From NCBI GenBank assembly GCA_965199955.1, contig CBDATQ010000001.1, positions 1,419,897 through 1,483,896 of the forward strand: DNA of 64,000 nucleotides. Direction: 5' to 3'. The stretch's first letter is position 1; the number at the start of each line of letters is the position of its first letter. The notes beneath the pieces are model-generated. The model was not told the origin of the DNA. It worked only from the letters and a program-made list of their open reading frames with translations, and did not search any database. The DNA is from Spirochaetia bacterium (GTDB lineage: Bacteria > Spirochaetota > Spirochaetia > SZUA-6 > Bin103). The translations under genes were made by a program, and so were the position numbers. This document shows positions 12,648-32,315 of the stretch, piece after piece.

Positions 12648-12674
12648 AAGTGGGCGTTCGGTCTCCCAACCGGG

Positions 12675-14468: not shown

Positions 14469-16703
14469 ACGCTACCGTGCGTTCCGCCGGGAAGCGCAGG
14501 GTGTAGCTGCCGCCCGCCCTGGTCTGCAGCTCCTGCACGGTGCTGCCGTAGCGAACGCGGCACCGGCCGCCGCGGTCCGCGCGAACCAACGCTTCGGCGA
14601 GTGCGCCGCCGCGCCAGCGGGCATCCACGGAAAAGGCGCCGCGCGCGCGAAAGCCGCGGAAGGAGCCGTCGGCCCACGCGGACGGCAACGCGGGCAGCAG
14701 GTGGATGACGCCGGCGTGGCTCTGCAGGAGCATCTCCGTGATCGCGGCGGCGACGCCCATCATGTCGCCGACCTGCACCTGGCCGTGGGCGTCCACGAAC
14801 AGGTTCGGATAGAGCTTGCGGGCGAACGACCGCTCAATCAGCTCCAGAGCGCGATCGCCCAGGCGGAGCCGGGCCAGGATCGCGGCGATCCAGCCCAGGC
14901 TCCAGCCCTGCGCGTCGTAATCGTGGCGCAGCCGGTGCTCGACCGAGCGCTGCGCCGCCCGAGCCAGCTCGGGATCGCGGTCGGGCTGCACCCGGTAGCC
15001 GGGCATCAACCCGTACAGGTGGGAGACGTGGCGGTGGCCGGGCTCCGCCTCCGCCGGTTCGTGGCGCCACTCGCGGAGCCGGCCGTCGCTGCCGATCGCC
15101 GGCAGCGCCAGCCGGTCGCGCGCCGCGCGGACTTGGCGCAGCAGGCCGTCGTCGATCTCCAGGATTTCGGCTGCCTCGATGAAGCCGTCGAACGTGTGCC
15201 AGATGATCTCCTGGTCGCACGCGCACCCCATCGACAGGCTGCAGGCGCGGCCGTTCGCGTCCAGGAATCGATTCTCCGGCGACGCGCCGGGCCCGGAAAC
15301 CAGCGTGCCGTCGTCCGGGTCCACCGCCAGCCAGTCGAGCAGGAACAGCGTGCAATCCCGGAGCACGGGATAGGCGCGTTCCGACAGGAACGCCCGGTCC
15401 CGCGTATAGCGGTAGTGGTCGATCATGTGCTGGGCACACCACGCGGCGCCCATCAGCCACATCCCCCAGAGCGGTTCCCCGTACACCGCCGCGTACCCCC
15501 ACGCGTCGGTGTCGACGCCGGCGAAGAACCCCCGGCATCCCAGCTCCCGCGCCGCCCGTCCGCCGGCCACTCGCAGGCGTTCGGTGAGGTGGAACAGCGG
15601 CTCGTGGCACTCCGGCAGAGCCAGCGGCTCGGCGAGCCAGTAGGCCTCCTGGAGATTGACGTTGATGTGGTAGTCCGAGTGCCACGGCGCGCGCAGCAGC
15701 GGGTTCCACACCCCCTGCAGGTTGGCCGGCAGCGTGCCGGGCCGGGACGCGGCGATGAACAGGTAGCGGCAGTAGTGGAAGTAGAGCAGCAGCAGCCCGG
15801 GGTCTGCCACGCCGGCTGCCGCGGCGCTCACGCGCGCGTCCGTGGCCCGGTCCCCGCCCGCGTCGACCGCAAGCTGCAGGTCCACCCGGCCGAACAGGCG
15901 TCCGTGGTCCGATTCGTGATGCTCGCGCAGCTCCTCATACGGCCGGCCGGCTGCGTCGTCGAGCCGCTGCCGGCACGCGGCCGTCAGGTCGCCGGGCAGC
16001 GGGCGCGAAGGGTCATCGAACCGATAGTCCGTGGCGATGGCCACCAGGACGGTCACGGAACGTGCGCCCCGGACCCGCAGCGACTCGGGCGCATCGACCG
16101 GGCCGTCATCACCAGCTCCGCGCCGGACCGGAGGTCGGTGACGCCGCCCGCGCCGCCCGGGTGCTGCAGTGCGAACGAAGCGCCGACGCGCGGCTCATCG
16201 GCATCGAGGCGCAGAACCACGATGTCGTCGGCGGCCGAAACGAACGCCTCGCGGCGATGGCGGACGCCTGCGCACCGGTACTCCACCGTGGCGACCGCGG
16301 TGCGCAGGTCGAGCCGCCGGCGGTAGTCGTGCACGGCTGCCTGCCCGTGTCCGAGCTCCATCGACAGGTAGCCGGCCGGCTGGTAGCTGCGCGGCGAGAT
16401 GCGCGGGGCAAGGAGATGGCGCTGGCAGTAGCGTTCCGCATCGAAGTGGCGGCCGGCGGACAGCAGGCGCCGGATCTCCGCGACGTGACGCCGCGCGTGC
16501 GGCTGCATGACCGGCACCGGCGGCCCGGCCCAGATCGTCTTTTCGTTGAGCAGCACCTGATCACGCCCGATGCCGCCATAGATCATGGCGCCCAGGCGGC
16601 CGTTGCCGAGCGGCAGGGCGGCGCTCCAGCCGCGCGCGGGCCGATCCCGGTCGGAGACCGGCCGGTCCAGGGCCGCCGGAGCGTTGTACCAGAGGTCGTG
16701 CAC
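14452..16703 (-). pseudogene. GH95-family alpha-L-fucosidase, split into two ORFs by a frameshift near 16055 (or a sequencing error)
   Basis: ORF 16053..16703 carries the GH95 N-terminal domain signature LWYNAPA...WSAALPLGNGRLGAMIYGG...LLNEKTIWAG. ORF 14452..16056 carries the catalytic (alpha/alpha)6 region with NLQGVWN and HVSHLYGLMPG. The two ORFs overlap at CCGTGACC in different frames. Confidence 0.5.
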
Positions 16704-16732
16704 GGAGTCGGAGGCTCGCGGTGGTGCGCGGA

Positions 16733-17653
16733 TTACGCCTTGATGTGGCCGACCAGCAGTCCCTTCACGAAGTAGCGCTGCAGGAACGGGTAGGCGACGG
16801 TGATCGGAAACACGGTGACCACGATCGTGGCGTACTTCATCGATTCCATGGTCACCAGCATCTCGGAGGTGATCATCTCCGCGCCGGGTTGGATGCTCTG
16901 CGACTGGGCGGAGGCCACCCGGTAGAACGCCTCCAGGCTCGACATGGTCTTGATCAGGATCGTCGGCACCGTCCACCACTTCTGGTTGAACACGAAGTAC
17001 GCGGATGCGAACCAGTCGTTCCAGTGCAACACGCCCACGAACAGGGCGATCGTCGCCAGCACAGGCCTGGACAGCGGCAGCATGATGCTCACGAAGATGC
17101 GGAAGTCGCCGGCGCCGTCGACCTTCGCCGAGTCCTCCAGCGACTGGGGCAGCTCCCGGAAGAACGCCATGAACAGGAGCGCGTGATAGTAGGCGAACAG
17201 CTCGGGAACGATGTAGACCCAGAACGTGTTGAGAAGGCCTATCGCGCGGTACAGCAAGTAGGTCGGGATCAGTCCGCCCGAGAAAAAGAGCGTGACCAGG
17301 CCGATCATCGAGTAGGTCTTGCGAAAGACGAGGTGCCTCTTGGAGAGCCCGTAGGCGACCATGGACGTGAAGAACACGGCGGTCACCGTGCCCACCGCCG
17401 TGCGCAGGATCGTCACCAGGAACGCGGTGCCGATGAGGGGATCGCCCAGCACGACGCGGTAGTTGGTCAGCGTAGGGCGGCGCGGGAACAGGAACAGCCC
17501 GCCCTTGGCCGAGTCGATCCCCTCGTTGAGGGAGCGCAGGATGACGTAGTAGAAGGGGTAGAGGGTGACGATGAGCACGATCAGCGCCAACGCGACCACG
17601 ACCATGTTGATGACGCGGTCCTCCCTCGACTGGGCCATGCGCGCGAGCGCCAT
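16733..17653 (-). CDS. ABC sugar transporter permease (LplC-like)
   Basis: multi-TM protein with the binding-protein-dependent permease EAA-like loop; ATG at 17653 overlaps the upstream stop (ATGA). Confidence 0.85.
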   Translation of the reverse strand: MALARMAQSREDRVINMVVVALALIVLIVTLYPFYYVILRSLNEGIDSAKGGLFLFPRRPTLTNYRVVLGDPLIGTAFLVTILRTAVGTVTAVFFTSMVAYGLSKRHLVFRKTYSMIGLVTLFFSGGLIPTYLLYRAIGLLNTFWVYIVPELFAYYHALLFMAFFRELPQSLEDSAKVDGAGDFRIFVSIMLPLSRPVLATIALFVGVLHWNDWFASAYFVFNQKWWTVPTILIKTMSSLEAFYRVASAQSQSIQPGAEMITSEMLVTMESMKYATIVVTVFPITVAYPFLQRYFVKGLLVGHIKA

Positions 17654-18603
17654 CAGAACAGGCTCCTGCCGCTGATCCGGCCCGACAGCCAGTTGGTGAT
17701 GACCACCAGGATCATCGCCAGCAGCGACTGCATCAGTCCGACCGAGGTGGCGAACGAGTAACGGCCGAGCTCCAGGCCCATTTCCAGGATGTAGTACTCC
17801 AGAACGTACGAGGTCTCGCGCGTGAACAGGTTGCCGAGCAGGTACGACGTGTCCAGGCCGGCGCGCACCAGCCCTCCCATGCTCAGGATCAGCAGCACCG
17901 CGATGAGGCCGGTCATGTTCGGCAGGGTGATCCGCCACGCGCGCCGCAGCCGTCCCGCGCCATCGATGGTCGCCGCCTCGTAGAGCTGCTCGTCGATGCC
18001 GGCGATCGCCGCCAAGTAGAGGATGGCGCTCCAGCCCATGCTCTTCCAGACGTTCACCATCGTCGCCAGCAGCCGCCAGTACTCGGGTTTCGTCCAGAAC
18101 AGCACCGGTTCGTCGACCAGGCCGACGGCAACCAGCACGTCGTTGACGATGCCGCGGCGGTCGAGCAGCAGGATGAACAGGTAGGCGGTGACCACGTAGG
18201 AGATGAAGTGCGGCAGGTAACTGGTGGTCTGCACCACCCGCTTGAATCCGGTGCGGGGGATCTCGTTGATCAGCAGCGCCAGCAGGATGGGTGCCGGGAA
18301 GCCGAACACCAACCCGTAGAGGCTGAGCAGCACGGTGTTCCGGAACGCGGGATAGAACTCCGGATCGGTGAGCGCCCAGGTGAAGTGCTTGAGTCCCACG
18401 AACGGGCTGGCGAAGTAGCCCATGAGGATCTTGAAGTCCTGGAAGGCGATGATCAGGCTGATCATCGGCAGATAGGCGAAGATGAGGAGGAACAGCACCC
18501 CCGGCAGGGTCATGAGCTGCAACTGGAGCTGTCCCCTGAACCGCCGCATCAGCGGTACGCGCACGATCGGCGCCGCGCGGCCGATTGCCGCCCTGTCCGC
18601 CAT
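17653..18603 (-). CDS. ABC sugar transporter permease (LplB-like)
   Basis: 317 aa multi-TM permease; start placed at MADRAAIG; 5 nt downstream of the GH32 stop. Confidence 0.85.
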   Translation of the reverse strand: MADRAAIGRAAPIVRVPLMRRFRGQLQLQLMTLPGVLFLLIFAYLPMISLIIAFQDFKILMGYFASPFVGLKHFTWALTDPEFYPAFRNTVLLSLYGLVFGFPAPILLALLINEIPRTGFKRVVQTTSYLPHFISYVVTAYLFILLLDRRGIVNDVLVAVGLVDEPVLFWTKPEYWRLLATMVNVWKSMGWSAILYLAAIAGIDEQLYEAATIDGAGRLRRAWRITLPNMTGLIAVLLILSMGGLVRAGLDTSYLLGNLFTRETSYVLEYYILEMGLELGRYSFATSVGLMQSLLAMILVVITNWLSGRISGRSLF

Positions 18604-18607
18604 GGGC

Positions 18608-20191
18608 TCAGTCACGCCCCTTGCGCACATAGGGGGCGGTCGGCGTGATCCGTTCGGTGAAGTGATCCTCGCCGCTGTCGATGCCGTCCAGATCCCACGC
18701 GTCCAGGTGACGCAGCGTCACCACGTGCTTGGAGTCGATGGGCGCGCCGCGCACGAAGAAGTGATACGCCAACCGGTCGGGGTCCGGCGGGTAGATGCGG
18801 TTGGCCATCGGCACGCCGTCGCCGGCGAACACCTCCAGTACCGACGCGTCCACGAACACCCGCAGCCGCACCTCCGCGCCGGCTTCGATTCCCGCCGGCG
18901 CGGTGTACTCGTTGTCCGGCGTGAGCATGCGGAGCTGTCCGTCGGCGGTGGAGTAGGTCACCTCGCAGGCGAACGGTCCGTCGGCGATGCGCAGGCCGCA
19001 GGAGAAGTCCTTGTACTCGATATCGTCCGGCGAGCCCGGATCCACGGCCAGCGCGATCTCCACCGACGAGCCCAGGACGCCGAGCTCGCAGACCTCGCCG
19101 ACAGCGAACGTGCGGTCGGCCCATCGGCGGTGGTTGCGGCGCAGCGCGGCGATCTCGCCGGCGGGCACGACGTCGAACGTGCCCTGCCGGTTGGGGATGA
19201 ATTGCCGCGGCACCGTGAACACGCCGGACCAGCGGATGTCCGGGTCTTGCGTGCGCCGCTGCTTGTCCGGGATCCAGCCCCACATGAACAGCCGCCCCGC
19301 GTCGTCGCGGGTCAGGACCGAGACCAGGAAGTTGTGGCCGTGGTCGGCGAAGCCGCGCCGCTCCTCGATGAAGCGGCCGTCCCGGATCGTGCCGACCATG
19401 TACTGGCGGTGGGCAAGGTTGCTGAGCAGGTGCCGGCCGTCGTCGAGGGGCCACACGCACGGACACTCGTAGTAGATGCCTTCCCGCTCGGCGTCGTCGG
19501 CCGACCAGAGGATGCCGCGGTAGCGCCACTCGCAGAGGTCGGACGAATCGAACAGCAGCACCAGGGATCCGGCCTTGTGCCGGCGCCCGGAGCCGACGGC
19601 CATGAAAAAGCCGTCGCGGTCGCGCCATACCCACGGATCGCGCATGCCCATCAGGTGCTCGTCGGCGCGCTCCGTATCGTAGGGGATGCCCAGGTCTTCA
19701 TGGTCGGGCGGGAGGGTGGCGACGGGGTTGGCGTGGTGCGCCCGGAAGCCCTGCAGGTCCTCCCCGTCGCTGACCGCCAGGTACACGTCGCGGTTCTCGA
19801 TCGTGTAGAAGGCGTACACCTTGCCCTCGTGCGCAATCAGGTTGCCGGACCAGAGGTGGCGGTCCGCGGCGACGCCGTGCTCGGGGGAGGTGAGCGCGGG
19901 CGGATAGTGCGTCCAGGTGACCAGGTCGGCGCTGGCCACGTGGCCCCATTGGCAGGGGCCGTGCATGGCCCGGAAGTCGGGCGAGTAGCTGTGCTGGTAG
20001 GTCACGTGGTAGCGGCCGCCGGCGAAGACGGGGTGCGTGTCTCCGGCGGCGCCGAAGGGTGCCGCCAGGTGGTAGCGAGGGTACCAGCGATCGGCCCGCA
20101 CCTCCCGGCGCAACGCGTCCACGGTGCGGCGGTACGCCGTCAGCCCCTCTGTCGCCGCCGCGTTGCCCATCGACAAGCCATCGTGTTCCAA
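18608..20191 (-). CDS. glycoside hydrolase family 32 (beta-fructofuranosidase / fructan hydrolase), intracellular
   Basis: GH32 motifs: N-terminal catalytic Asp block GDTHP in the YHLAAP...YHVTYQH context, RDP motif MGMRDPWVW, EC motif IYYECPCVW. Confidence 0.85.
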   Translation of the reverse strand: MEHDGLSMGNAAATEGLTAYRRTVDALRREVRADRWYPRYHLAAPFGAAGDTHPVFAGGRYHVTYQHSYSPDFRAMHGPCQWGHVASADLVTWTHYPPALTSPEHGVAADRHLWSGNLIAHEGKVYAFYTIENRDVYLAVSDGEDLQGFRAHHANPVATLPPDHEDLGIPYDTERADEHLMGMRDPWVWRDRDGFFMAVGSGRRHKAGSLVLLFDSSDLCEWRYRGILWSADDAEREGIYYECPCVWPLDDGRHLLSNLAHRQYMVGTIRDGRFIEERRGFADHGHNFLVSVLTRDDAGRLFMWGWIPDKQRRTQDPDIRWSGVFTVPRQFIPNRQGTFDVVPAGEIAALRRNHRRWADRTFAVGEVCELGVLGSSVEIALAVDPGSPDDIEYKDFSCGLRIADGPFACEVTYSTADGQLRMLTPDNEYTAPAGIEAGAEVRLRVFVDASVLEVFAGDGVPMANRIYPPDPDRLAYHFFVRGAPIDSKHVVTLRHLDAWDLDGIDSGEDHFTERITPTAPYVRKGRD

Positions 20192-20243: not shown

Positions 20244-22211
20244 ATGCTGCTTGAGAACGACATGCTGCGCGTGCAGCTCCACGACGGCATACCGGTCGTC
20301 GCGTCGTACACGCACCTTCCCACAGACCAGACGCTGCTCGGCGACCCGGGCGCGACGCCACTGACGATCAACGGCGACGCGGTCGCATGGAGTGAGCTGA
20401 CCGTCGATCACTCCGCAACGGCGACCTCCGCGGCGTTCCACGTGTCCTACGGCGACATCTCGTTCGACTACCGGCTCGACCTGGAGGCCGATTGCCTGCG
20501 GCTGCGCATCGACGGCATCTCCGGGCCGCTCGCCACGCTCGGCTTCGGCGGCTCGCCGCTGCTGCAGGTGAGCGACCCGGAGTACCGGTACGCCCGCATC
20601 TCGTTCGAGGAGGACAGGGAAATCGCCAAGAAGTGGTGGCGGGAGCACTTCGGCGCGGTCGGCGGCGACAGCGACGCGTGCGACGTGATGCACGGCTGCG
20701 TCTGCCACCCCGACCGGCTGTGCGCCTTCGTGCACAGCAACTTCCCGCTGCTGCCGGCGCGCCATGCCAACGGTCCCGGCGGCTACTCGGTCGCCCTCAA
20801 CGACTACCGCTACCGGCTGCGTTCGCGGACGATGTGGCCGCTCGACGTGAAGGTGGTGTTCCTGCAGGACTACAACGGCGACGGCATCATGGACTGGAGC
20901 GACTGGGCGCTCTGGGTCAACCGCTCCCTGCCGGACGCCGACGAGCTGTACCGCACGACCATTTCCTACAAGATCTTCCTGACGCTCAAGAACGACCAGG
21001 TGTTCACCACCTACCCGCAGATGATGGAAATCGTGCGCGCCATCCACAACGTCGCTGACGGCATCCCCCAGCTCATCTACCTGGTCGGCTGGCAGAACCA
21101 GGGCCACGACGACAACTATCCGACCATGGACCGGATCAACCCGCGGCCCGGCGGCAGGCACCGTCTGCTGCGGGCCATCGACGAGTGCGAGCGGGACTAC
21201 GACACGACCGTCAGCTATCACATCAACATCGACGACGCCTATCCCGAAAGCCCGGACTGGGACCCGTCGTACATGTCCGCCGAGAGCGGCAAGCCATGCG
21301 GCGTCGTGCACACACTGGACTGGGAGCTCGGCCACTTCCGGCGGCGCATGGAAGGGATGCTGCGCATGGTGCCCGTGCCCCGGACCCTGCACGTCGACAA
21401 CACCCGCATCTGCAACACGGCCGCCCGCGATTTCGACGGCATCGGCGAGCTGGAGGAGCTGTACTGCGGGCTGTTGCCCATGGCGGAGTGGCTCAAGGAG
21501 AAGGGCATCAGCCTCACCACCGAAGGCACGAACGGCATGCCCATCGACGGGACGCTGCTGTTCTCCGGGTGGTTCCACTACGACTGCGGGCTCATCGGCC
21601 GGCAGATGCTGCACCGCAAGATCGTCGGCGGCGGCGCCGGCCGCCACTTCGGCGAGCTGTACGCGCGCGACTACGCACTCGGCTCCAACATCCACGTCGA
21701 CTTCGCCTACGGGCGCCGCGACGTCGTGGTCAGTTATCTGGAGGACTGGCGCGGCATGGTCGACCGGATCTACCTGGGCTCGCTCCTCTATCTCTACTTC
21801 CTGGAGCGCGAGATGGTGGTGTGCCGCGGCACCTGGCCGGACGACATCCACATGGAGTACGACGACGGCACCGTCGTGGACATCACCTCCCAGTACACCA
21901 TGACCGTCAAGCGCGGTGACATGGTGATCGCCAAGGACAACGACACGCGCTGCGTCCCGCTGGGAGACGCGCTGTACCTCTACTCACCGGTCGGCGACCG
22001 GCAGAGCTTCGTCCTGCCGCCGGAATTGCACGGCAAGCCGTTGCGGATCGTCATGCTGTCGCGGGACGGCGTCGAGGAGCACGATTTCGCGCTGCCGGCC
22101 GACGCCCACTACCACGTTAAGCACGACCGCATCGACTTCCACTGGATGGCGACCTACGTGCCGTACAAGGTGACTCTGGCGGAGCCGGCGGCCGACCCCG
22201 CGCAGGACTGA
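20244..22211 (+). CDS. uncharacterised 655-aa protein, paralog A of a three-member family in this window
   Basis: SD AGGAG 9 nt upstream of the ATG; protein-like composition; conserved EF-hand-like loop DYNGDGIMDWSD; WQNQGHDD and NIDDAYP blocks suggest a (beta/alpha)8-type fold; no signal peptide. Confidence 0.75.
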   Translation: MLLENDMLRVQLHDGIPVVASYTHLPTDQTLLGDPGATPLTINGDAVAWSELTVDHSATATSAAFHVSYGDISFDYRLDLEADCLRLRIDGISGPLATLGFGGSPLLQVSDPEYRYARISFEEDREIAKKWWREHFGAVGGDSDACDVMHGCVCHPDRLCAFVHSNFPLLPARHANGPGGYSVALNDYRYRLRSRTMWPLDVKVVFLQDYNGDGIMDWSDWALWVNRSLPDADELYRTTISYKIFLTLKNDQVFTTYPQMMEIVRAIHNVADGIPQLIYLVGWQNQGHDDNYPTMDRINPRPGGRHRLLRAIDECERDYDTTVSYHINIDDAYPESPDWDPSYMSAESGKPCGVVHTLDWELGHFRRRMEGMLRMVPVPRTLHVDNTRICNTAARDFDGIGELEELYCGLLPMAEWLKEKGISLTTEGTNGMPIDGTLLFSGWFHYDCGLIGRQMLHRKIVGGGAGRHFGELYARDYALGSNIHVDFAYGRRDVVVSYLEDWRGMVDRIYLGSLLYLYFLEREMVVCRGTWPDDIHMEYDDGTVVDITSQYTMTVKRGDMVIAKDNDTRCVPLGDALYLYSPVGDRQSFVLPPELHGKPLRIVMLSRDGVEEHDFALPADAHYHVKHDRIDFHWMATYVPYKVTLAEPAADPAQD

Positions 22212-22214
22212 CGC

Positions 22215-24182
22215 ATGCTGCTCGAGAACGAAACGCTGCGCGTGCAACTCCATGACGGGATTCCCGCCGTCGCGTCGTACACCCATCTCGCCACCGGCCA
22301 AGCGCTGCTCGGGGATCCGGACGCGACGCCGCTCGTGATCAACGGCGCCGCGGTCGCGTGGAGCGATCTGACCATCGATCGATCCGCAACGGCGACGGCG
22401 GCGGCATTCCACGTCACGTACGGCGACATCTCGTTCGACTGCCGGTTCGAGCTGGAGCCGGACTGCCTGCGCCTGCGCCTCGACGGTGTCTCCGGGCCGC
22501 TCGAGACGCTCGGCTTCGGCGGCTCGCCGCTGCTGCAGGTGAGCGGCCGGGACTGGCGCTACGCCCGCATCGCTGTTTCCGAGCCAAGCGAGAATGGCAA
22601 GAAGTGGTGGCGCGAGCACTTCGGCTCGGTCGGCGGCGATCAGGCCGAGTGCGACGTGATACGTGGCTGCATCTACCATCCGGACCGGCTGTGCGCCTTC
22701 GTGCACAGCAACTTCCCGCTGCTGCCGGAGCGCCATGCCAACGGCGCCGGCGGCTATTCGGTCGCCCTCAGCGACTACGGCTACCGGGTGCGCTCACGGA
22801 CGATGTTCCCGCTCGACGTGAAGGTCGTCTTCCTGCAGGACTACAACGGCGACGGAACCATCGACTGGAGCGACTGGGCGCTCTGGGTCAACCGCACCCT
22901 GCCGGACGCCGACGATCTGTATCGCTCGACGATCTCCTACAAGATCTTCGTTACCGTCAAGAACGACCAGGTGTTCACCACGTTCCCGCAGATGACGGAG
23001 ATCGTCCGCGCCATCCACAACGTCGCCGACGGTATTCCTCAGCTCATCTACATGGCCGGCTGGCAATACCAGGGGCACGACGACCGTTACCCGTCGATCG
23101 ACCAGGTCAATCCGCGCGCCGGCGGCGCGCACCGTCTGCTGCGGGCCATCGACGAGTGCGAGCGAAACTACGACACGACCGTCAGCTACCACATCAACAT
23201 CGACGACGCCTATCCCGACAGCCCGGACTGGGACCCGTCCTACATGACCGCCATGGACTGGGATCCGTCGGACGGCGGGCGTCCCTGCGGCGTCGTGCAC
23301 ACCTTGGATTGGGAGCTCGGGCACTTTCGCCGGCGCATGGAAGCGATGATGCGCACGGTGCCCGTGGCCCGCACCCTGCACGTCGACAACACCCGCATCT
23401 GCAATACGGCAGGCCGCGGCTTCGGCGGCATCGGTGAGCTGGAGGAGCTCTACTGCGGGTTGCTGCCCATGGCGGAGTGGTTGAAGGAGAGGGGGATCAG
23501 CCTCACCACCGAAGGGACGAACGGCATGCCGATCGACGGGACGCTGCTGTTTTCGGGGTGGTTCCACTACGACTGCGGGCTCATCGGCCGGCAGATGCTG
23601 CACCGCAAGATGGTCGGCGGCGGCCCCGGCCGCCACTTCGGCGAGCTGTACGCGCGCGACTACGGGATCGGCTCGAACATCCACGTCGACTTCTCGTACG
23701 CGCGCCGCGAGTTCGAGGTCAGTTACCTGGAGGACTGGCGCGGCATCGTCGACCGGATCTACCTGGGCACGCTGCTCTACCTCTATTTCCTGGAGCGCGA
23801 GATGGTGGTGGCCCGCGGCACGTGGCCGGACGACGTCCACATCGAGTACGACGACGGCACCGTCGTGGACATCACGTCCCGGCACACCATGACCGTCGTA
23901 CGCGGCGACATGGTGATCGCCAGGGACAACGACACGCGCTGCATCCCGCTGGGAGACACCCTGTACCTCTACTCACCGGTCGGCGACCGGCAGAGCTTCG
24001 TCCTGCCGAGCGAGTGGCACGGCAAGCCGTTGCGGATCGTCATGCTGACCCGCGACGGTGTCGAGGAGCACGACGAGGCGCTGCCCGCCCGATGGAAGTA
24101 CCGGGTCGAGCACGACCGCATCGACTTCCACTGGATGCCGCCGTACGTGCCCTACAAGGTGACGCTCGCAGATCAGGCTTGA
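22215..24182 (+). CDS. uncharacterised 655-aa protein, paralog B (recent tandem duplicate of A)
   Basis: about 85% nt identity to paralog A including the junction CAGGA..CTGACGCATGCTGCT; begins 3 nt after the stop of A. Confidence 0.75.
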   Translation: MLLENETLRVQLHDGIPAVASYTHLATGQALLGDPDATPLVINGAAVAWSDLTIDRSATATAAAFHVTYGDISFDCRFELEPDCLRLRLDGVSGPLETLGFGGSPLLQVSGRDWRYARIAVSEPSENGKKWWREHFGSVGGDQAECDVIRGCIYHPDRLCAFVHSNFPLLPERHANGAGGYSVALSDYGYRVRSRTMFPLDVKVVFLQDYNGDGTIDWSDWALWVNRTLPDADDLYRSTISYKIFVTVKNDQVFTTFPQMTEIVRAIHNVADGIPQLIYMAGWQYQGHDDRYPSIDQVNPRAGGAHRLLRAIDECERNYDTTVSYHINIDDAYPDSPDWDPSYMTAMDWDPSDGGRPCGVVHTLDWELGHFRRRMEAMMRTVPVARTLHVDNTRICNTAGRGFGGIGELEELYCGLLPMAEWLKERGISLTTEGTNGMPIDGTLLFSGWFHYDCGLIGRQMLHRKMVGGGPGRHFGELYARDYGIGSNIHVDFSYARREFEVSYLEDWRGIVDRIYLGTLLYLYFLEREMVVARGTWPDDVHIEYDDGTVVDITSRHTMTVVRGDMVIARDNDTRCIPLGDTLYLYSPVGDRQSFVLPSEWHGKPLRIVMLTRDGVEEHDEALPARWKYRVEHDRIDFHWMPPYVPYKVTLADQA

Positions 24183-26377
24183 GGGCCCGGCTCGGCCGGC
24201 CGCTCCCAGATCGACCGCATCTCGTGAACGCGCAGGCGGTCCACGCGCACGGCGCCGCCGGCGGTCCGCAGCAGGACGGCGCCGGCGGTCTGCGGGAAGG
24301 CACACCGGACCGGCGTGTAGTAGCGGCCGCGCGCGCTGAAGATCTCCAGGAAGATCGTGTCGACGATCAGCCGCAGGTCCAATCGGCCGTCCACCGGGGC
24401 CAGCGGTGCCCGTACGTCGTTGTCCTCCAGCGCCTCGTGGAACTGCAGTTCCATCGCCTGCAGGTCGAGCCGGATCTGTTTCCCCAGGATTTCGAGCGTC
24501 AGGGCGCCGGCGCCGGCCGGCGTCAGCTCCAGCTCGATGTCCAGGAGCCTGCCGGCGGGCCGCACCTCGAGCGGCTCGGCGTCGCTGACCACGGTGCCGT
24601 CCGGTACGCTCGCGGTGTCGAAGCGCAGGCGGTCCAGCTCGGCCACCGGGTTCTGATGGATCCGCAGGCCTTCGTCCTTGCGCCGCAGGGTCAGCTCGAT
24701 CGGAAAGCTGATGAGGCTGTTCAGCATCGGGTTCAGGCCGCTGACCTGGCCCTTGGCCACCAGGATGCGCCGGCCGTCCGGCGCGTCGTTGAAGGTCTGT
24801 GACGCGTACAGGCTGCCGTCGGTGTACTTGAAGCGGATGATGTCCGTCTCCGGCACGAAGCGCGTGCCGTCGAACGTGCCCAGGTAGTAGTCGCAGCTCG
24901 CGCCGAAGAACACCCACCTGCTTGTGCCCGGCTCGTCCTGCACGGGAAGCTCGAAGAGCTCCGGGCACTCGTGCATGCCGGGCACCTGGCTCCGGAACTG
25001 CCAGTGCAGCAGATCCGTGGAGGTCATGATGAAGTGCACGTCGTTGTGGATGTAGAGCACCATGACCCAGTGCCTGCCGGGCTGATACCAGAACACTTTC
25101 GCGTCGCGGTTGCCGCGGTCGATGTTGCGGATGACCGGGTTGCCGTCCCAGGGGCGCCAGGTGCGCCCCCGGTCGGTGCTGTAGACGATGCAGACGTCCA
25201 CCGACCGGCCGTGCGACAGCCGGTTGGAGCCGCCGTAGGCGGTGTAGAAGATCACCATCGGCGTGCGGCCGGGGCTGCCCAGGCCGGACGAGTTGTGGTG
25301 GTCGACCACGCACGAGCCGGACACGGCCACGCCCCGCTCGTCGGGCCAGAGCGTGTCGGGAAGCTCTTCCCAGTGCACGAGGTCGCGGCTGACCGCGTGG
25401 CCCCAACCCCAGTTGCAGTTCGAGTTGCCGGGCGTGACGTTGCACGGCACGTGCTGGTAGTGCAGGTGCCATTCCCCGTCGAACCAGACCAGGCCGTTGG
25501 CGTCCGAGGACGCGCCGCGGCGCGGCGCGTAGTGGAGCAGCGGCCGGCCGGGCTCCCGGTACAGGTCGTCGCAGCCGACCATCCGGTCGCCGATGCGCAC
25601 GGCCGCCAGCAGGTCGGTGGCCGGCGGCGCCGCGGCGTCGGCGAGCTCTTCGATGCGCAGCGTCAGGTCCATCCCCTCCCAGGCCGACAGGTCGACCGGC
25701 ACCCAGAAGTCCGGATCGTCGAGCGCGATGCTCACGGTGTTGGAGGCGACCGTGTGCCCTCCGCCGGTGAGCTGGATCTCGCGAAAGGGTGAGCGCAGGC
25801 CGACGGGAAGGTTGAGGAAGCGGTGCCCGGCCCGGAAGCGGCGCTCCGCGAAGGTCGGCAGCGGGAGCGGCGGCGTGTCGGTCTGCGCGATCTGGTCGGC
25901 CAGGATGTGGCCCCAGGGGCCGGTGTGCTGATCGACGATCTCCACCCGGACCTGCCTGCCCGCCAGGTCGGCAAGGTCGAACCAGTCCCACGCCAGGTGG
26001 TCCGCGCCGTCCGCCTCCCACTGGCTGCGCGGCGCCGTGCGCACGACGTGGCCGTCGTGGACGAGGTTGAGGGCGACGTAGCCGGGGTCGTTGTTGCCGT
26101 AGTAGGTGCGGCGGCCGCCGCCGATCAGGAAACTCAGGTAGCGGCGCTGCGCCGTGAACGGAGGCGAGATCAGCCGGCCGAGCGCGGGGTCGCCGCCGTG
26201 AAAGCTGGAGGCGTAACCGTCGCCGAGATAGCCGGTGACCTCCGTCTGGCCGGGCAGGACGCCGCGCACGGGCGCGGGGCCGAAGGCGGTGCCCTCGACC
26301 GTCCACCCGCCCCAGTCGTCGCCTTCGAAGTCGGCGAGGAGGATGTCGGGCCGCGTCTGCCTGGGTGCCGCCATCAA
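24173..26377 (-). CDS. glycoside hydrolase family 32 with ~260-aa N-terminal accessory (lectin/beta-sandwich-like) domain
   Basis: 734 aa; GH32 blocks SSDANGLVWFDGEWHLHYQ, WGHAVSRDLVHWEELP, RDAKVFWYQ, MHECPELF; N-terminal DFEGDDWGGWTVEGTAFG region. Confidence 0.85.
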   Translation of the reverse strand: MMAAPRQTRPDILLADFEGDDWGGWTVEGTAFGPAPVRGVLPGQTEVTGYLGDGYASSFHGGDPALGRLISPPFTAQRRYLSFLIGGGRRTYYGNNDPGYVALNLVHDGHVVRTAPRSQWEADGADHLAWDWFDLADLAGRQVRVEIVDQHTGPWGHILADQIAQTDTPPLPLPTFAERRFRAGHRFLNLPVGLRSPFREIQLTGGGHTVASNTVSIALDDPDFWVPVDLSAWEGMDLTLRIEELADAAAPPATDLLAAVRIGDRMVGCDDLYREPGRPLLHYAPRRGASSDANGLVWFDGEWHLHYQHVPCNVTPGNSNCNWGWGHAVSRDLVHWEELPDTLWPDERGVAVSGSCVVDHHNSSGLGSPGRTPMVIFYTAYGGSNRLSHGRSVDVCIVYSTDRGRTWRPWDGNPVIRNIDRGNRDAKVFWYQPGRHWVMVLYIHNDVHFIMTSTDLLHWQFRSQVPGMHECPELFELPVQDEPGTSRWVFFGASCDYYLGTFDGTRFVPETDIIRFKYTDGSLYASQTFNDAPDGRRILVAKGQVSGLNPMLNSLISFPIELTLRRKDEGLRIHQNPVAELDRLRFDTASVPDGTVVSDAEPLEVRPAGRLLDIELELTPAGAGALTLEILGKQIRLDLQAMELQFHEALEDNDVRAPLAPVDGRLDLRLIVDTIFLEIFSARGRYYTPVRCAFPQTAGAVLLRTAGGAVRVDRLRVHEMRSIWERPAEPGPQA

Positions 26378-26416
26378 CTGTCGCCGGCCGGACGGTGCAA
26401 TGGCCGCCCGGTGCGG

Positions 26417-26637
26417 TCAAGCACGGTGGTCCGTCGCACACTGAACCGCATCGGGGTTTGCCGCGACGCCGATGGTCGCCCCAGCGTCGTCGATGCCGAG
26501 CACCAGGAGGCCGCCGGCGCCATTTGCGAAAGCACACAGCGTCCTGCCGACGCCCGCATGTCGTCGACGCCGCGCTTGAACTCGGTAGCGGCATCCTCTC
26601 CCGCGTGGACACGCCGCTCGACCTCGGCCCACTCCAT
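26417..26637 (-). pseudogene. remnant of an AlbA_2 (Schlafen-like) domain gene, frameshifted and truncated
   Basis: two overlapping minus-strand frames together read ...EDAATEFKRGVDDMRASAGR / TLCAFANGAGGLLVLGIDDAGATIGVAAN, matching the AlbA_2 N-terminal consensus (E.EFK ... AFAN.GG.L.GV.D.G); no downstream ATPase part. Confidence 0.35.
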
Positions 26638-26758
26638 CGTCGTCCGTGTCGGAGCATACCAGCAGCCCGGCCGGGTGATCGTCGTTGCGGGGTCAGGCAA
26701 CCCTTGCCGGATGCGACATTCGCGTATACACAGAGGCCGCGCAGGAGGTCGCTACATC

Positions 26759-28861
26759 GTGCATGACGACAGGAACGACACCCCGGTGGTCCTCGATAGC
26801 CCGGAGCTGCAAGTAGAGCTGGATCCGAACCTGCCGCTGGTGAGGGGGTATCGCCACCTCCCGACCGGCCGCGCCTTCGGAGGCAGTCACGACGGGACGC
26901 TGCGCGTGAACGGAGCCGAGTTCCGCATGAGCGACCTGGAGATCGAGCCGCGCGCCATCCCCGACGGCCGCTGCTACGGCGTCTCGGTTCCCGAGCAGCG
27001 GATCGCGTTCGAGCTGGCTTTTACGCTTGCCGGTGCCACGCTGTCGCTGAGGATGCAGGACATCGACGACGAGCGCACGCCGCTTGCGAGCCTGCAGTGG
27101 GTGGACAGTCCCCTGCTGGTCTGCGACGCCCCGGCGCTCCGCTTCTTTCGCATGTTCACGACCGAGCCCGACCAGAAAGCGATGGGCAAGATGTGGCTCC
27201 GCGACGCCGACGGCGCCGTTCGCGACGCGCCGGACGAGGCCGAGCCGGTGCCGCTGATCTACGGCGCGCTCTACCAGCCGGAATCGGTCTGCGCGTTCCT
27301 GCACTCCAACTACCCGTTGTTTCCGCAGTCCCATCGGATCACCGCAGGGCGGTGCGAGATTCACCTGGGCGATTACCGGCATCGGGTGCGCGACCGCGTG
27401 GTGCCGCCGCTGGAGGCTGACATCGTCTTCCTGGGCGATATCAATCAGGACGGGAGGGTGGACGCCAGCGACTACCGCCTGTGGCTCAACCGCCGGCTGC
27501 CCGACGGCGATTCCGTGTATCGGACGTCGCTCTGGTACAAGATCCTCTGCGACATGAGCGGCCACTATCCCAAGGTGGGCGTGACCGCGACGATCGAGGA
27601 GTCCGAGCGGATCATCCGCTCGATCCATCACGTGACCGACGGCCTCCCGCAGGCCGTCTTCATGACCAACTGGAACGCCCAGCAGCCCGAAGCCGCGTAC
27701 CCGGCGCTCGACCTGTACAACCACAACATCGGCACCCCGGAGGAGCTGCGCGCGCTGGCGGCGACCTGCAAGGAGCTGGGCGGACTGCTCAGCTACCACA
27801 CGAACATCGACGATGCCCACCTCACCAGCAAGGACTATGACGAGGCGCTCCTGGGCCGCCGCTACGATCCGCACGGCACGGTGTGGGACGAGAACGGCGA
27901 GGCCTGGGACGAATCGGTCATTGCCGGCATATCCCACACCCGCGACGTGGAGAGCGGGGCGATCTTCCGCCGCCTGGAGGCGATGATGCGGGTGATCCCG
28001 GTGGAGCGGACGATCCACATGGACAACATCCGGCTTACCAACTGCGACCCGGACGCCGACCCGGACGACATCGGCGTCACCGAGGAGCTGGTGTGCGGCA
28101 TGCTGCCGATCGTGGAGTGGCTCCGCGACCGCGGCATCAGCGTGTCGGGTGAGGGCTACAACGGCCTGCCGATCGACCCGACGCTGCTGAACGCCGCGTT
28201 CTGGCACCACGACGCGAGCGACCTCTCGCGGCAGATCTTCCACCGCAAGGTGATGGGCGGCGGGCGCGGCGACCACTACGGCGGCGCGACGACCATGGAC
28301 TACGGTATCTGCAAGTCCATCCACCAGGACATCACGTACCGCCCGGTCAGCGTCTCCGCGCTCGGCAAGGAGACGTACCTGGAGTACTTCCCGTGGCTGC
28401 ATGACCACGAGCGGGCGACCCTGTCGTTCCTGGAAAATTGGGACCTGATCGTGGATCGGATCTACCGGGGATCGCTGCTCAACCTCTTCTACCTGGAGCG
28501 GGAGATGCTGTCGTGGGACAGAGTGGGTGACGGCGCCCGGGTCCGTTATGCGGGCGGCGTGGAAGCGCAGGTGTGCATCGACGGGCCGGATCACCTGCGT
28601 GTGACCTGGGGCGACGTGGTGGTCGCCGATGGCGATGACCGGTTCGTGCCGCTCGGCGACGGCGTGTACTGCTACAGCCTGCTCGGCGGACGCCGCGACT
28701 GGACGCTGCCGCCGGGGCTTCGCGGGCGGAAATTGGCGCTCTACAGCCTGAGCGCCGACGGGCGGGGACCGGCGCCCGAGCACGCGGTGGACAGGGATTA
28801 CCTGACCCTGACGCTGGCCGCCGGTGTTCCGGTCAAGGTGACCGCCGCCGGATCCGCCTGA
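26759..28861 (+). CDS. uncharacterised 700-aa protein, paralog C of the same family
   Basis: GTG start with SD AGGAGG 10 nt upstream (an alternative ATG is at 26711); aligns with paralogs A and B including the EF-hand-like loop DINQDGRVDASD; its stop overlaps the start of the downstream GH32 (TGATG). Confidence 0.75.
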   Translation: MHDDRNDTPVVLDSPELQVELDPNLPLVRGYRHLPTGRAFGGSHDGTLRVNGAEFRMSDLEIEPRAIPDGRCYGVSVPEQRIAFELAFTLAGATLSLRMQDIDDERTPLASLQWVDSPLLVCDAPALRFFRMFTTEPDQKAMGKMWLRDADGAVRDAPDEAEPVPLIYGALYQPESVCAFLHSNYPLFPQSHRITAGRCEIHLGDYRHRVRDRVVPPLEADIVFLGDINQDGRVDASDYRLWLNRRLPDGDSVYRTSLWYKILCDMSGHYPKVGVTATIEESERIIRSIHHVTDGLPQAVFMTNWNAQQPEAAYPALDLYNHNIGTPEELRALAATCKELGGLLSYHTNIDDAHLTSKDYDEALLGRRYDPHGTVWDENGEAWDESVIAGISHTRDVESGAIFRRLEAMMRVIPVERTIHMDNIRLTNCDPDADPDDIGVTEELVCGMLPIVEWLRDRGISVSGEGYNGLPIDPTLLNAAFWHHDASDLSRQIFHRKVMGGGRGDHYGGATTMDYGICKSIHQDITYRPVSVSALGKETYLEYFPWLHDHERATLSFLENWDLIVDRIYRGSLLNLFYLEREMLSWDRVGDGARVRYAGGVEAQVCIDGPDHLRVTWGDVVVADGDDRFVPLGDGVYCYSLLGGRRDWTLPPGLRGRKLALYSLSADGRGPAPEHAVDRDYLTLTLAAGVPVKVTAAGSA

Positions 28862-30201
28862 TGGCGACTCGGGCGGGCGGCGTCCCGGTCCCGGCCAATC
28901 CCAGCTCGCCGCTGCACTTCCGGCCCGCGCGCGGCAGGATATGCGACACCATCCCGTTCTTCGACGACGGCGAATACCACATCTTCTACATCCGCTGTGA
29001 CACCGAGGGCGGGTTGCCGTGGGACCACATCGTCTCCCGCGACCTCGTGCACTGGCACGAGCTGCCCACCGCCCTGGAGCGGGATCCGAACGACCCGCAC
29101 GGCCCGGACGGACGGGACATGTTCACCGGTTGCGTCGTCGAGTACGACGGCGTGTTCCACATCTTCTACACCGGCCACAACCCGGTGAACCCCGACGGCG
29201 CCGAGATCATCTGCCACGCCACCAGCGACGATCTGGTGACCTGGCACAAGCACCGCGAGCACTGCTTCGCCCCGGACGGCGCCGTCTACCATCCGTGCGA
29301 CTTCCGCGATCCGTTCGTGTTCCGGCACGAGGAGTCCGGTGAGTGGTGGATGCTGCTGTGCGCCGGGTTGGCCGGCTCGGACTGCTCCGGCATCGGCCGG
29401 CTGGTATCGACCGACCTGGTGTCCTGGAAGCCGGCGGAGCCGCTACTGCTCGACCCGCCGTTGCTGGAGGGCGAGACCGGAGCACCCGAGTGCCCGGACC
29501 TGTTCCGCATCGGCGACTACTGGCATCTGCTCTACACGCGGCGGGGGCAGAACATCCGCCGCGCGCGCCACGTCGACGGACCCTTCATGCACGGGGTTCC
29601 GTCCCAGCTCGACAACACCCTGCTGCTGGCCGGAAAGCGCCTGTTCGACGGCACGCGCCACATCTACTTCGGTCCGCTGTTCGGAGACCACAACGATTCG
29701 GTGATGAACCTCCCGCGCGAGCTCTTCCAGGGCGACGACGGCCATCTGCGCGTTCGTCCGGTCCGGGAAGTGGTGGACTTCTTCGTCGCAGTCGTCCACG
29801 AGTCGGCGGACGGCGGTTTCGACCTGCCTGCAACCGGCTATCGTTGCCCGGTGCCCGCGGACTGCCTGGTGCGGTGCTCGGTCGAGCTCGCGGAGGACAC
29901 AACCCTCACCATCGGCCTGCGCGCCGACGCCGACGGCAGCGGCGGCATCCCGGTCACGGTCCATGCCGGCCGCCGTTCGCTGGAGATCGGCCCGTACCAC
30001 CGGAGCTGGGGCGACGCCGCGCTGCCGGTTATCACGTTGCAGATCTTCGTGCTCGGCACGGTCATCGAGTGCTTTCTCGACGACCGCCTGGCCATGGTCG
30101 GGCGCACCTACGAACGAAGCGGCGGCTACCTGTCGATCGCCAGCCACGGAGGCGCGGCCCGAGTGCTCGCGCTTGAGGTACGCGAAGCGCCCGACGCGTG
30201 A
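28861..30201 (+). CDS. glycoside hydrolase family 32 (short, 446 aa), intracellular
   Basis: catalytic blocks FFDDGEYHIFY, SRDLVHWHELP, FRDPFVF, ECPDLF. Confidence 0.85.
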   Translation: MATRAGGVPVPANPSSPLHFRPARGRICDTIPFFDDGEYHIFYIRCDTEGGLPWDHIVSRDLVHWHELPTALERDPNDPHGPDGRDMFTGCVVEYDGVFHIFYTGHNPVNPDGAEIICHATSDDLVTWHKHREHCFAPDGAVYHPCDFRDPFVFRHEESGEWWMLLCAGLAGSDCSGIGRLVSTDLVSWKPAEPLLLDPPLLEGETGAPECPDLFRIGDYWHLLYTRRGQNIRRARHVDGPFMHGVPSQLDNTLLLAGKRLFDGTRHIYFGPLFGDHNDSVMNLPRELFQGDDGHLRVRPVREVVDFFVAVVHESADGGFDLPATGYRCPVPADCLVRCSVELAEDTTLTIGLRADADGSGGIPVTVHAGRRSLEIGPYHRSWGDAALPVITLQIFVLGTVIECFLDDRLAMVGRTYERSGGYLSIASHGGAARVLALEVREAPDA

Positions 30202-30587: not shown

Positions 30588-30657
30588 CCTAACCCGGCCG
30601 GCCGTGCTACCGTGCGCGCTATCGCCCGTCATGGGCGGAACCAGGCGAGGGGAGATC

Positions 30658-31479
30658 ATGCCGCGAGTGAGCGTTGACGAGGCGATCCGGCGGGTCGCCG
30701 TCGAGGGCTGGTGCGTCCTGGACTCGGTGATCCCGCCGGGCGAGGTGGACGGCGTGCGCGACGCCGTGCTTGCCGTGTCGCGGCGGGAGCGGGACGCGGA
30801 CAAGCCGCGCATCGGCATCGGCGGGCTGATCGCCAAGACGCAGGCGTTCGCGCCGTACGTCGCCGAGGAGCGGCTGCTCGGCGTGGCCCACGCGCGGCTC
30901 GGCACGCCGGTGCGCATCTCGATGACACACGGCATCGTCACCGCGCCCGGCTACGGCCGCGCCAACTGGCACGGCGACTGGCCGTTCAGCCTGCGGCAGG
31001 ACCAGAAGGTCCTGCACCCGTACCCGATCGACGCGCCGATGCACATCACCACCCTCTGGGCGCTCACCGAGTTCAGCGCCGCCACCGGCGGCACCGCGAT
31101 CGTCCCGGGCAGCCACCGCTTCGGGAACAATCCTTCGGGCGACAACGGCTACGGCGAGCACGCGCCGGTTCCGTCGGAGCTGCAGCCGCACATGGACCCG
31201 GGCGACGTGCTGATGATCGACAGCCGCGTCTGGCACACGAACGGCGACAACATCAGCGACCGCACGCGCGTCGGCATGGCGGTCCGCTATGCGCCGTGGT
31301 GGTACAACATCCACGTGCTGACCGCCGGCATCCGCCAGTACGAGGAGACGGCGGCCGAACGCGGACTGCGCGCCGACGACGTGATCCCGATCACGCCCGA
31401 GCAGTACGAGTCGCTGCCGGACGCGGTCAAGCCGTTGCTGCGCCACATCGTCGTCGGCCAGAAGGTCCGGGCGGCATGA
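30658..31479 (+). CDS. PhyH-family Fe(II)/2OG dioxygenase, paralog 1 of a tandem pair
   Basis: about 273 aa from MPRVSVDEAIRRV; HxD motif NWHGDWPF; second His in PGSHRF. Confidence 0.75.
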   Translation: MPRVSVDEAIRRVAVEGWCVLDSVIPPGEVDGVRDAVLAVSRRERDADKPRIGIGGLIAKTQAFAPYVAEERLLGVAHARLGTPVRISMTHGIVTAPGYGRANWHGDWPFSLRQDQKVLHPYPIDAPMHITTLWALTEFSAATGGTAIVPGSHRFGNNPSGDNGYGEHAPVPSELQPHMDPGDVLMIDSRVWHTNGDNISDRTRVGMAVRYAPWWYNIHVLTAGIRQYEETAAERGLRADDVIPITPEQYESLPDAVKPLLRHIVVGQKVRAA

Positions 31480-32315
31480 GTGACACCGCCGTCGCCCACA
31501 CCGTCGGCGCCGAGGAGGCGCTCCGCCGCGTGCGGACCGAGGGCTGGTGCGTGATCGACGGCGTCATTCCGCAGGACGAGCTGGCCGAGGTGGTCGGCAG
31601 CGTCTCCGCCACCCTGGGCGGCCGTTCCGAGTTGCGCGGCCTGATCGCCTGCGACAGCTCGTTCGCGCCCTACTTGGTCGACGAGCGGCTCACTGCGATC
31701 GCCGAGGGAATGTTCGGCCCCGCGTCGCGCATCGCCAGAACTGACGCCTTCGCGGCCGAGCCCTGCGCCGCCTACAGCGGCTGGCACGCCGACTGGCCGT
31801 TCTCCGGCGACGACAGCTATCGGGTGGCCGTGCCGTACGGTGACCTGGCCATGGCGGTGACCACCCTCTGGATGCTCACCGATTCTCCCGCGGGCGCAGG
31901 CGCCACGGTGATCGCCTCCGGCAGCCACCGCACGCACGACAACCCGGCCGTCGCGCCCGGTTACGCCGCCGACGCGGAGATCGCTTCGCAGATGCTCCCG
32001 GAGGTCCCAGCCGGCAGCGTGCTGGCGTTCGACAGCCGCCTGTGGCACCGGACCACAGCCAACACGGGTGCCGAACGGCGTTTGTGGCTCGACATCCAGT
32101 ACGTGCCATGGTGGCTGGACGTCACCAGCATGATTCCCGGGCTCGCGGACTACGAGACGCGCGCCGAGGGGCTCGCCTACCGGCCCGTGGAGATCCGCCC
32201 GCTTGACGAGGCTTCCTTCGGGGCACTGCCGGACGAGGTGAAGCCGCTGTTCGACCACCTGCTCCTCGATCAGGGGGTGATCGCCTGGCATCCGGACGCA
32301 CCGGCGTCCTCCTGA
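31476..32315 (+). CDS. PhyH-family Fe(II)/2OG dioxygenase, paralog 2
   Basis: 279 aa from MSDTAVAH; the ATG overlaps the upstream stop (ATGA); motifs GWHADWPF and SGSHRTH; collinear similarity to paralog 1. Confidence 0.75.
   Translation: MSDTAVAHTVGAEEALRRVRTEGWCVIDGVIPQDELAEVVGSVSATLGGRSELRGLIACDSSFAPYLVDERLTAIAEGMFGPASRIARTDAFAAEPCAAYSGWHADWPFSGDDSYRVAVPYGDLAMAVTTLWMLTDSPAGAGATVIASGSHRTHDNPAVAPGYAADAEIASQMLPEVPAGSVLAFDSRLWHRTTANTGAERRLWLDIQYVPWWLDVTSMIPGLADYETRAEGLAYRPVEIRPLDEASFGALPDEVKPLFDHLLLDQGVIAWHPDAPASS

Follow-up and report, generated by a model that had tools for sequence, protein, structure and literature searches.

GH101-like paralogs encoded among GH32 genes in an uncultured Spirochaetia bacterium: a divergent, probably cytoplasmic glycosidase clade

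Three paralogous genes, here called A, B and C, lie among three genes of glycoside hydrolase (GH) family 32 in a 64,000-nucleotide (nt) stretch of contig CBDATQ010000001.1 (positions 1,419,897 to 1,483,896; assembly GCA_965199955.1, Spirochaetia bacterium), which is referred to as the window. A preceding sequence-only reading had taken their products for an unrecognised, possibly new family of carbohydrate-active enzymes. We found that the three proteins are significantly related to GH101, the family of the endo-α-N-acetylgalactosaminidases, and that they are best described as a divergent, uncharacterised and probably cytoplasmic clade of the GH101 superfamily. With fair confidence, we read them as cytoplasmic, minimal GH101-superfamily retaining α-glycosidases that work within a gene cluster for import and breakdown.

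Sequence and fold relationship to GH101

The Pfam profile Glyco_hydro_101 (PF12905) matched A, B and C with 39.7, 42.6 and 26.1 bits, respectively, above the gathering cut-off of 25, and the matches were partial (profile positions 40-128, 40-176 and 47-174 of 272). Weak Pfam matches to the GH101-associated galactose-mutarotase-like N-terminal domain were obtained for all three proteins and, for C, also to the GH101 C-terminal sandwich; no Pfam domain beyond these GH101-related ones was detected in them. With A as query, phmmer retrieved the pneumococcal and bifidobacterial endo-α-N-acetylgalactosaminidases SpGH101 (Streptococcus pneumoniae, PDB 3ECQ and 5A55) and EngBF (Bifidobacterium longum, PDB 2ZXQ) at E 1e-8, and a profile of 14 family members aligned with EngBF at E 5e-21; the three collinear segments of this match span N-domain, barrel and C-terminal sandwich. 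Proteins at least 90% identical to the paralogs (cluster mates) carry the NCBI name 'endo-alpha-N-acetylgalactosaminidase family protein [Spirochaetaceae bacterium]'.

A structure model, built on a shallow 14-sequence alignment, was composed of an N-terminal galactose-mutarotase-like β-sandwich, a (β/α)8 barrel and a C-terminal β-sandwich, the same three-domain core as in the GH101 catalytic region. In the fold search made with this predicted structure GH101 was nearest, with a template modelling (TM) score of 0.74 and a sequence identity of 15-17%. The (β/α)8-type fold that had been anticipated from the sequence is thus seen in the model as well as in the fold matches. The idea of an unrecognised family, however, did not survive, since an established CAZy family was matched in the Pfam search and the similarity to GH101 was significant in Pfam, phmmer, profile and fold comparisons.

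GH129, which includes the α-N-acetylgalactosaminidase NagBb (PDB 5WZN) and the 3,6-anhydro-D-galactosidase DagB (PDB 5OPQ), showed no significant sequence similarity (profile E 0.33 to 5WZN) and gave a secondary structural match with a TM score of about 0.5. An N-terminal β-sandwich joined to a (β/α)8 barrel also occurs in α-galactosidase-type enzymes of GH36, GH97 and GH31 (for example PDB 9AWT, 5XFM and 6PHW), which act on α-linked, mostly galacto-configured sugars. The near structural neighbours of the model were enzymes acting on α-linked N-acetylgalactosamine (GalNAc), galactosamine, 3,6-anhydrogalactose and galactose (Gal) and on β-L-arabinopyranosides. Because all close structural neighbours act on galacto-configured sugars, the sugar in subsite -1 of the paralogs is probably of this type as well (α-Gal, α-GalNAc or a mimic).

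Predicted catalytic residues and substrate loop

A, B and C have in common with GH101 the Ca-binding DxNxDGxxDxxD loop, the GHD motif (QPE in C), an H-x-N motif, the nucleophile Asp on barrel strand 4 and the acid/base Glu within 'TTE' on strand 5. In EngBF, the Asp and the Glu of the segment IYLDVW...GWRMTTEW are 33 residues apart, a spacing that agrees with its published nucleophile and acid/base, D789 and E822 (D764 and E796 in SpGH101). The correspondence was drawn through a bridge protein, P0130, which shares 49% identity with SpGH101 across a core fragment of 140 residues and in which FVYLDTYR aligns with the family sequence tlhvDntr; the family SLTTEG in turn parallels the MTTEW of EngBF. 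The residues predicted on this basis are D385 and E427 in A (those of B and C are given in Table 1). In the model they are found at the C-terminal ends of the strands 381-385 and 423-426, which are the positions expected for barrel strands 4 and 5. D385 is kept in 149 of 150 cluster representatives and E427 in 144 of 147, and the GHD motif, corresponding to D658 of SpGH101 by phmmer-alignment numbering, is kept in nearly all of the ~150 relatives, as is the H-x-N motif. At the level of profile alignment, the Asp/Glu pair of GH101 is present.

Replacement of GHD by QPE was seen, among these ~150 relatives, only in C and its Spirochaetia orthologs P0014 and P0021, with both catalytic residues retained, and it suggests that the third paralog has functionally diverged. 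The loss of GHD in C would also suit a different reading, namely that the paralogs are retaining glycoside phosphorylases or transglycosylases, or that C is a non-catalytic sugar-binding paralog. Cytoplasmic enzymes with a retaining fold and an Asp/Glu pair include phosphorylases, such as those of GH13_18, and in locus L041 a homolog is followed by a gene of the GH65 phosphorylase family. Such activities seem improbable to us, as neither catalytic residue is lost in C, the pattern of conservation matches a hydrolase active site and we know of no phosphorylase described in GH101 or GH129.

The substrate loop of GH101 was not found in A or in the family profile: the Trp-Asn-Trp loop YGWNWLDQG of EngBF (within sagglsygwnwldqgv) is an insertion relative to the profile, and A has HTLDWE in its place. 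In EngBF, the tryptophans of the GWNW loop presumably stack on the Gal-GalNAc disaccharide. Because the catalytic pair is kept but this loop is absent, A, B and C would be retaining α-glycosidases with a substrate other than mucin core 1. The large multidomain build of GH101 is likewise missing: the paralogs have 655-700 amino acids (aa) and, by inspection, no signal peptide, whereas the catalytic-core constructs of GH101 in PDB have 1112-1531 residues, the native enzymes being larger; unlike GH101, they have neither a cell-wall anchor nor carbohydrate-binding modules. Characterised GH101 enzymes are described as large, with POGases that have C-terminal domains binding cell glycans, in Actinomycetota and Firmicutes (PMC11861894).

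These features bear on the possibility that A, B and C are true endo-α-N-acetylgalactosaminidases, which would free Gal-β-1,3-GalNAc from Ser/Thr of imported O-glycopeptides. The Pfam GH101 match and the PGAP name would fit this function, as would the conserved Asp, Glu and GHD motif, the neighbouring GH95 and GH110-like genes, which resemble trimmers of mucin or blood-group glycans, and two M60-like peptidases encoded near homologs elsewhere. We consider it very improbable, given the low identity to GH101, the absence of the EngBF loop, of a signal peptide and of accessory binding domains, the origin of the hosts (environmental metagenome-assembled genomes, MAGs) and a neighbourhood of GH32 genes and a sugar ATP-binding cassette (ABC) importer, where GH101 genes neighbour mucin-degradation genes. 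Cleavage of mucin O-glycans as such is unlikely because the Trp-Asn-Trp loop, a secretion signal and extra binding domains are all missing.

The three paralogs as genes

A and B are 82-83% identical to each other and 37-39% identical to C. In a window of ~69% G+C, the G+C content at third codon positions was 0.94 in A, 0.91 in B and 0.85 in C, the value for C being taken over the stop-to-stop open reading frame (ORF) 25793-28861, which includes upstream non-coding sequence; this bias marks the three ORFs as coding. The start codon of C, GTG at 26759, is preceded at 10 nt by AGGAGG. The stop of C overlaps the start of GH32 #3 in the sequence TGATG (28859-28863), and the end of B (24182) converges with the minus-strand GH32 #2 with an overlap of 10 nt. 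No signal peptide was visible, by inspection only, at the N-termini of A, B and C (MLLENDMLRVQLHDG..., MHDDRNDTPVV...). The sequence-only reading had reported this arrangement of three co-linear paralogs, the coupling, the convergence and the missing signal peptides, and all of these held: the ORFs are exact and the three partner genes are GH32 by Pfam. The motif blocks that it had quoted, for instance NIDDAYP.SPDWDPSYM and WELGHFRRRME, are exact in A, occur as near variants in B and are more diverged in C.

The same reading had preferred carbohydrate-active enzymes to spurious ORFs, and codon bias and conservation bear it out. Long ORFs are common in high-GC DNA and the adjacent GH95 gene is frameshifted, as might be expected of chance frames or decaying pseudogenes of a high-GC genome. 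The strong codon-position bias, the 962 homolog clusters described below, full-length conservation across phyla, invariant catalytic residues and a maintained gene order speak so clearly for genuine genes that we give this explanation practically no weight and rejected it.

Since only one A/B-type copy is present in each of the related loci L003 and L015, the A/B tandem duplication is a lineage-specific event.

Distribution of the clade

A word-indexed search returned 13 relatives only. When 1.84 billion cluster representatives were searched exhaustively with HMMER, 962 matched at E<=1e-3, and 117 of them at E<=1e-30. About 60 of these are near-full-length close relatives (counted as clusters at 50% identity), and several hundred of the matches are more distant. 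In GTDB data with one genome per species, from which the distribution was taken, the close relatives (79-96% identical) were all in ten MAG species labelled 'Spirochaetia bacterium', of which five are reported as single chromosomes, of 4.6-7.4 Mb. The ~69% G+C of the window and genomes of this size seem, as a general impression, unusually GC-rich and large for spirochaetes; the closest MAGs are labelled Spirochaetia or Spirochaetaceae. More distant relatives (25-48% identity) were found in MAGs of Planctomycetales, Gemmatimonadota, Sumerlaeia, Poribacteria, Latescibacterota, Zixibacteria, Chitinophagaceae/Puia, Acidobacteria and Proteobacteria. No isolate was among the hosts in these data, and the clade is confined to uncultured bacteria of at least ten phyla. 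Orthologs of C reach 41-48% identity in other phyla; the C-type is the older and more widely distributed form and the A/B-type the narrower one. Literature searches on GH101- or GH129-like families and on GH32/GH172/GH95/GH110 combinations gave no description of the clade or of its gene cluster.

The gene cluster in the window

The cluster extends from ~6.1 to 31.5 kb of the window (Table 1). Among its proteins only the solute-binding protein shows an export or anchor signal.

Table 1. Paralogs A, B and C, their predicted active-site residues and the surrounding genes (coordinates in the window).
Feature	Position	Strand	Remarks
PhyH	6158-7009	-	
DUF8034-family protein	8152-9936	+	upstream of the solute-binding protein
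Solute-binding protein of ABC importer	10868-12544	+	558 aa; Pfam SBP_bac_8; hydrophobic signal/anchor-like N-terminal segment
GH110-like right-handed β-helix	12675-14468	+	Pfam Beta_helix; PDB GH110 7jw4, E 7.5e-21; no signal peptide by inspection
GH95 (α-L-fucosidase/α-L-galactosidase family)	14452-16979	-	two ORFs; Pfam GH95 catalytic, 3e-138, and GH65N_2
Two ABC permeases	16733-18630	-	longest ORFs 16733-17938 and 17653-18630; Pfam BPD_transp_1
GH32 #1	18608-20191	-	527 aa; divergent from A, 52-nt gap
Paralog A	20244-22211	+	655 aa; GH101-like glycosidase; Ca-loop D209; GHD D289; predicted nucleophile D385 (nt 21396-21398); predicted acid/base E427 (nt 21522-21524)
Paralog B	22215-24182	+	655 aa; tandem duplicate of A; predicted nucleophile D391; predicted acid/base E433
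GH32 #2	24173-26377	-	734 aa, ~280-aa N-terminal extension; convergent with B, divergent from C
Paralog C	26759-28861	+	700 aa; GTG start; predicted nucleophile D422; predicted acid/base E465; QPE (residues 309-311, E311) replaces GHD
GH32 #3	28861-30201	+	446 aa; start overlaps C stop
PhyH-family Fe(II)/2-oxoglutarate dioxygenase	30604-31479	+	Pfam PhyH, 3.1e-18
PhyH-family gene	about 31500-32315	+	
Sulfatase	35594-37057	+	N-sulfoglucosamine-sulfohydrolase-type C-domain

The three GH32 products match Pfam Glyco_hydro_32N with E-values from 3e-28 to 3e-44 and were assigned to GH32 also by a PDB sequence search. GH32 #1 has GH32N (1.9e-36) and GH32C (1e-09) domains, retains RDP and ECP and matches β-fructofuranosidases in PDB at E 1e-30; GH32 #2 (GH32N, 3.2e-44) has the motifs SDANG, RDA and ECP. 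The canonical W-M-N-D-P-N-G box is lost in all three, the nucleophile boxes being degenerate (GAAGDTHP in #1, GASSDANG in #2 and RICDTIP in #3) with the RDP/RDA and ECP motifs kept, so that these enzymes may have an altered -1 site, judging from sequence.

The GH95 gene changes frame near 16095-16113, which separates an N-domain ORF (16053-16979) from a catalytic ORF (14452-16056). In L008, L010 and L013 one open frame runs across both halves; the split in the window is either a pseudogene or an assembly indel error. The first permease probably starts near 17656, because its ortholog in L003 has 307 aa. The β-helix gene was also considered as a GH91 inulin fructotransferase or difructose anhydride (DFA) III hydrolase, an assignment that would have favoured a route through difructose anhydrides, and the PDB search gave GH110 α-1,3-galactosidases instead.

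The DUF8034 family is very large, with more than 4660 matches. The window protein is ~60% identical to 'hypothetical' proteins in MAGs of Chloroflexi, Poribacteria, Zixibacteria and Candidatus Handelsmanbacteria and had no sequence match in PDB. Its AlphaFold2 model (predicted local distance difference test 77.5) combines an (α/α)6-type barrel with a β-sandwich and weakly matches sugar epimerases, GH76 and GH127 (E ~1e-3, TM 0.2-0.3), which gives no clue to the substrate. DUF8034 genes adjoin sulfatases resembling N-sulfoglucosamine sulfohydrolase in L083 and lie near a C-type gene in L072.

Conservation of the neighbourhood in other genomes

A tblastn comparison showed synteny, in ten Spirochaetia MAG species, for the block that runs from the binding protein as far as C, with GH32 #3 included in most of them. 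The order is that of the window (solute-binding protein, GH110-like, GH95, permeases, GH32, A, B, GH32, C, GH32) at 79-96% identity, GH95 being missing from L011 and L015; the binding protein is syntenic in loci L002-L015. In L002, an A-type gene 59% identical to A is accompanied by the orthologous transporter (permeases ~70% identical) and a β-helix gene, and GH127 and GH172 stand in place of GH32, the GH172 gene being translationally coupled to the A-type gene (10001-13428). A second GH101-like gene lies nearby, and this partnership with a furanosidase parallels that of C and GH32 #3. GH172 is the family of α-D-fructofuranosidase and DFA I enzymes (PMC8605356).

GH32 recurs beside C-type genes in an unrelated, Gemmatimonadota-like lineage. 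Locus L055, which shares its lineage with the Gemmatimonadota MAG L017, has the order PhyH, GH3, GH32, C-type, PhyH, dehydratase, aldolase, and L059 has GH32, a GH95-like gene and a C-type gene. Their C-type proteins are ~44% identical to C and their GH32 proteins 30-32% (~31%) identical to GH32 #2, part of whose N-terminal extension they have in common; these GH32 enzymes are near-canonical (GWINDPCG, RDP, ECP).

In a first census of 73 neighbours in ten loci of other phyla, PhyH was the most frequent family (four genes), followed by GH172 (two), and GH32 was not found; jackhmmer and a small hidden Markov model recovered only three of the four PhyH neighbours counted by Pfam. In 21 GTDB loci from other phyla, no GH32 gene was found close to the homologs. 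The second census covered 114 neighbours from 30 metagenome loci and yielded six GH32N domains (three with a GH32 C-domain), six PhyH, five enolase-superfamily dehydratases and four sulfatases. PhyH genes flank the window cluster and recur by C-type genes in Spirochaetia and Gemmatimonadota-like lineages: beside C-type genes they were located in L017 (797-1648, 4170-5024), L055 (3634-4479, 11135-11965) and L037 (12161-13910), and L072 has the order C-type, PhyH, DUF8034. Sulfatase genes adjoin C-type genes in L045 (2447-4021), L069 (2024-3475) and L073 (11593-13044) and are found within a few kb in the lineage of the window; such proximity could point to a sulfated substrate, or simply to genomes rich in sulfatases.

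The surroundings of a Bacteroidota homolog are a SusC/SusD locus that also encodes a GH130-like propeller, a GH63-like enzyme and members of GH92, GH95 and GH29. The propeller, encoded directly downstream of the homolog, was tried as a GH32 partner and rejected: it is GH130-like, with a β-1,2-mannobiose phosphorylase as its best PDB match, and has weak repeat-level similarity only to GH32 #3. Genes for GDSL esterases and a GH65 enzyme flank another homolog.

The linkage to GH32 genes, as put forward in the sequence-only reading, is therefore real in the ten MAG species, where sugar-transport genes belong to it as well, and recurs, for GH32 and the C-type, in a second distant lineage; it does not extend across the family. 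That reading had also proposed a fructan-derived substrate, and A, B and C could accordingly be pictured as α-fructofuranosidases or difructose-anhydride hydrolases. The three GH32 genes of the cluster, the near-canonical GH32 next to the C-type gene in L055 and L059, and GH172, coupled to the A-type gene in L002 and also located near C-type homologs, are consistent with this. The close structural relatives, however, all act on galacto-type pyranosides, in other phyla GH32 is absent from the surroundings of most homologs, the β-helix neighbour is GH110-like and not GH91, and GH95 and GH110-like partners are ill-suited to a pure fructan. We regard a fructan pathway of this kind as unlikely and its substrate as unproven, and the associations with GH172 and GH127 keep a furanoside-related alternative open.

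Proposed function

The reading that we favour remains that of cytoplasmic retaining α-glycosidases. In the route that we propose, an oligosaccharide would be captured by the 558-aa binding protein, imported through the two permeases and then degraded in the cytoplasm, where the GH101-like enzymes would act alongside three GH32-type (β-fructofuranosidase-like) enzymes, one GH110-like (α-1,3-galactosidase-like) enzyme and one GH95 enzyme, the last two adding the trimming of α-1,3-Gal and of α-L-fucose or α-L-galactose. Because an export or anchor signal is confined to the binding protein, we infer such an import-then-dismantle system for an oligosaccharide of several linkage types. A, B and C would hydrolyse an α-glycosidic bond by the retaining double displacement of GH101, with the Asp of H-V/M-D-N-x-R at the end of barrel strand 4 as putative nucleophile and the Glu of T-T-E-G at the end of strand 5 as putative acid/base. 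The cluster resembles the logic of raffinose operons, in which an α-galactosidase is combined with GH32 and an ABC importer.

Several points weigh against this reading. The catalytic assignment relies on profile alignment through an intermediate sequence and on secondary-structure position, not on residue-level superposition, and the supporting model derives from the shallow alignment mentioned above. C has QPE where GHD is near-universal, and its activity may be altered or reduced. The degenerate nucleophile boxes leave the term 'fructoside' uncertain even for the GH32 partners in the window. Because the neighbourhoods beyond Spirochaetia are heterogeneous (GH130-like, GH63-like, GH92, GH65, GH172, sulfatases, GDSL esterases), one common substrate is unlikely. 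The literature searches gave no biochemical data for any family member.

Significance

To our knowledge, GH101 has one known activity, the release of core-1 O-glycans from mucins, which is carried out by large, surface-associated enzymes of host-associated Actinomycetota and Firmicutes. A, B and C belong to uncultured environmental bacteria and neighbour GH32 genes and an ABC importer. Because the clade is found only in uncultured bacteria, appears cytoplasmic and is without the mucin-binding loop, it is very likely that evolution has turned the GH101 catalytic scaffold to a different α-glycoside. The automated annotation 'endo-alpha-N-acetylgalactosaminidase family protein' is probably misleading where mucin degradation is deduced from metagenomes.

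More tentatively, and with some doubt on our part, A, B and C could form, as GH129 did before them, a distinct GH family or subfamily inside the GH101/GH129 fold group, consisting of non-mucin cytoplasmic retaining α-glycosidases with GH32-type, PhyH and DUF8034 partners; a separate CAZy family might follow later, once a member is characterised. If so, they would be the first enzymes of the GH101 type to have a specificity other than mucin, acting on an environmental hetero-oligosaccharide. For enzyme discovery their value is incremental, in that they offer a good target and no conceptual surprise; identification of the substrate would extend the known specificities by one and might establish a further CAZy family.

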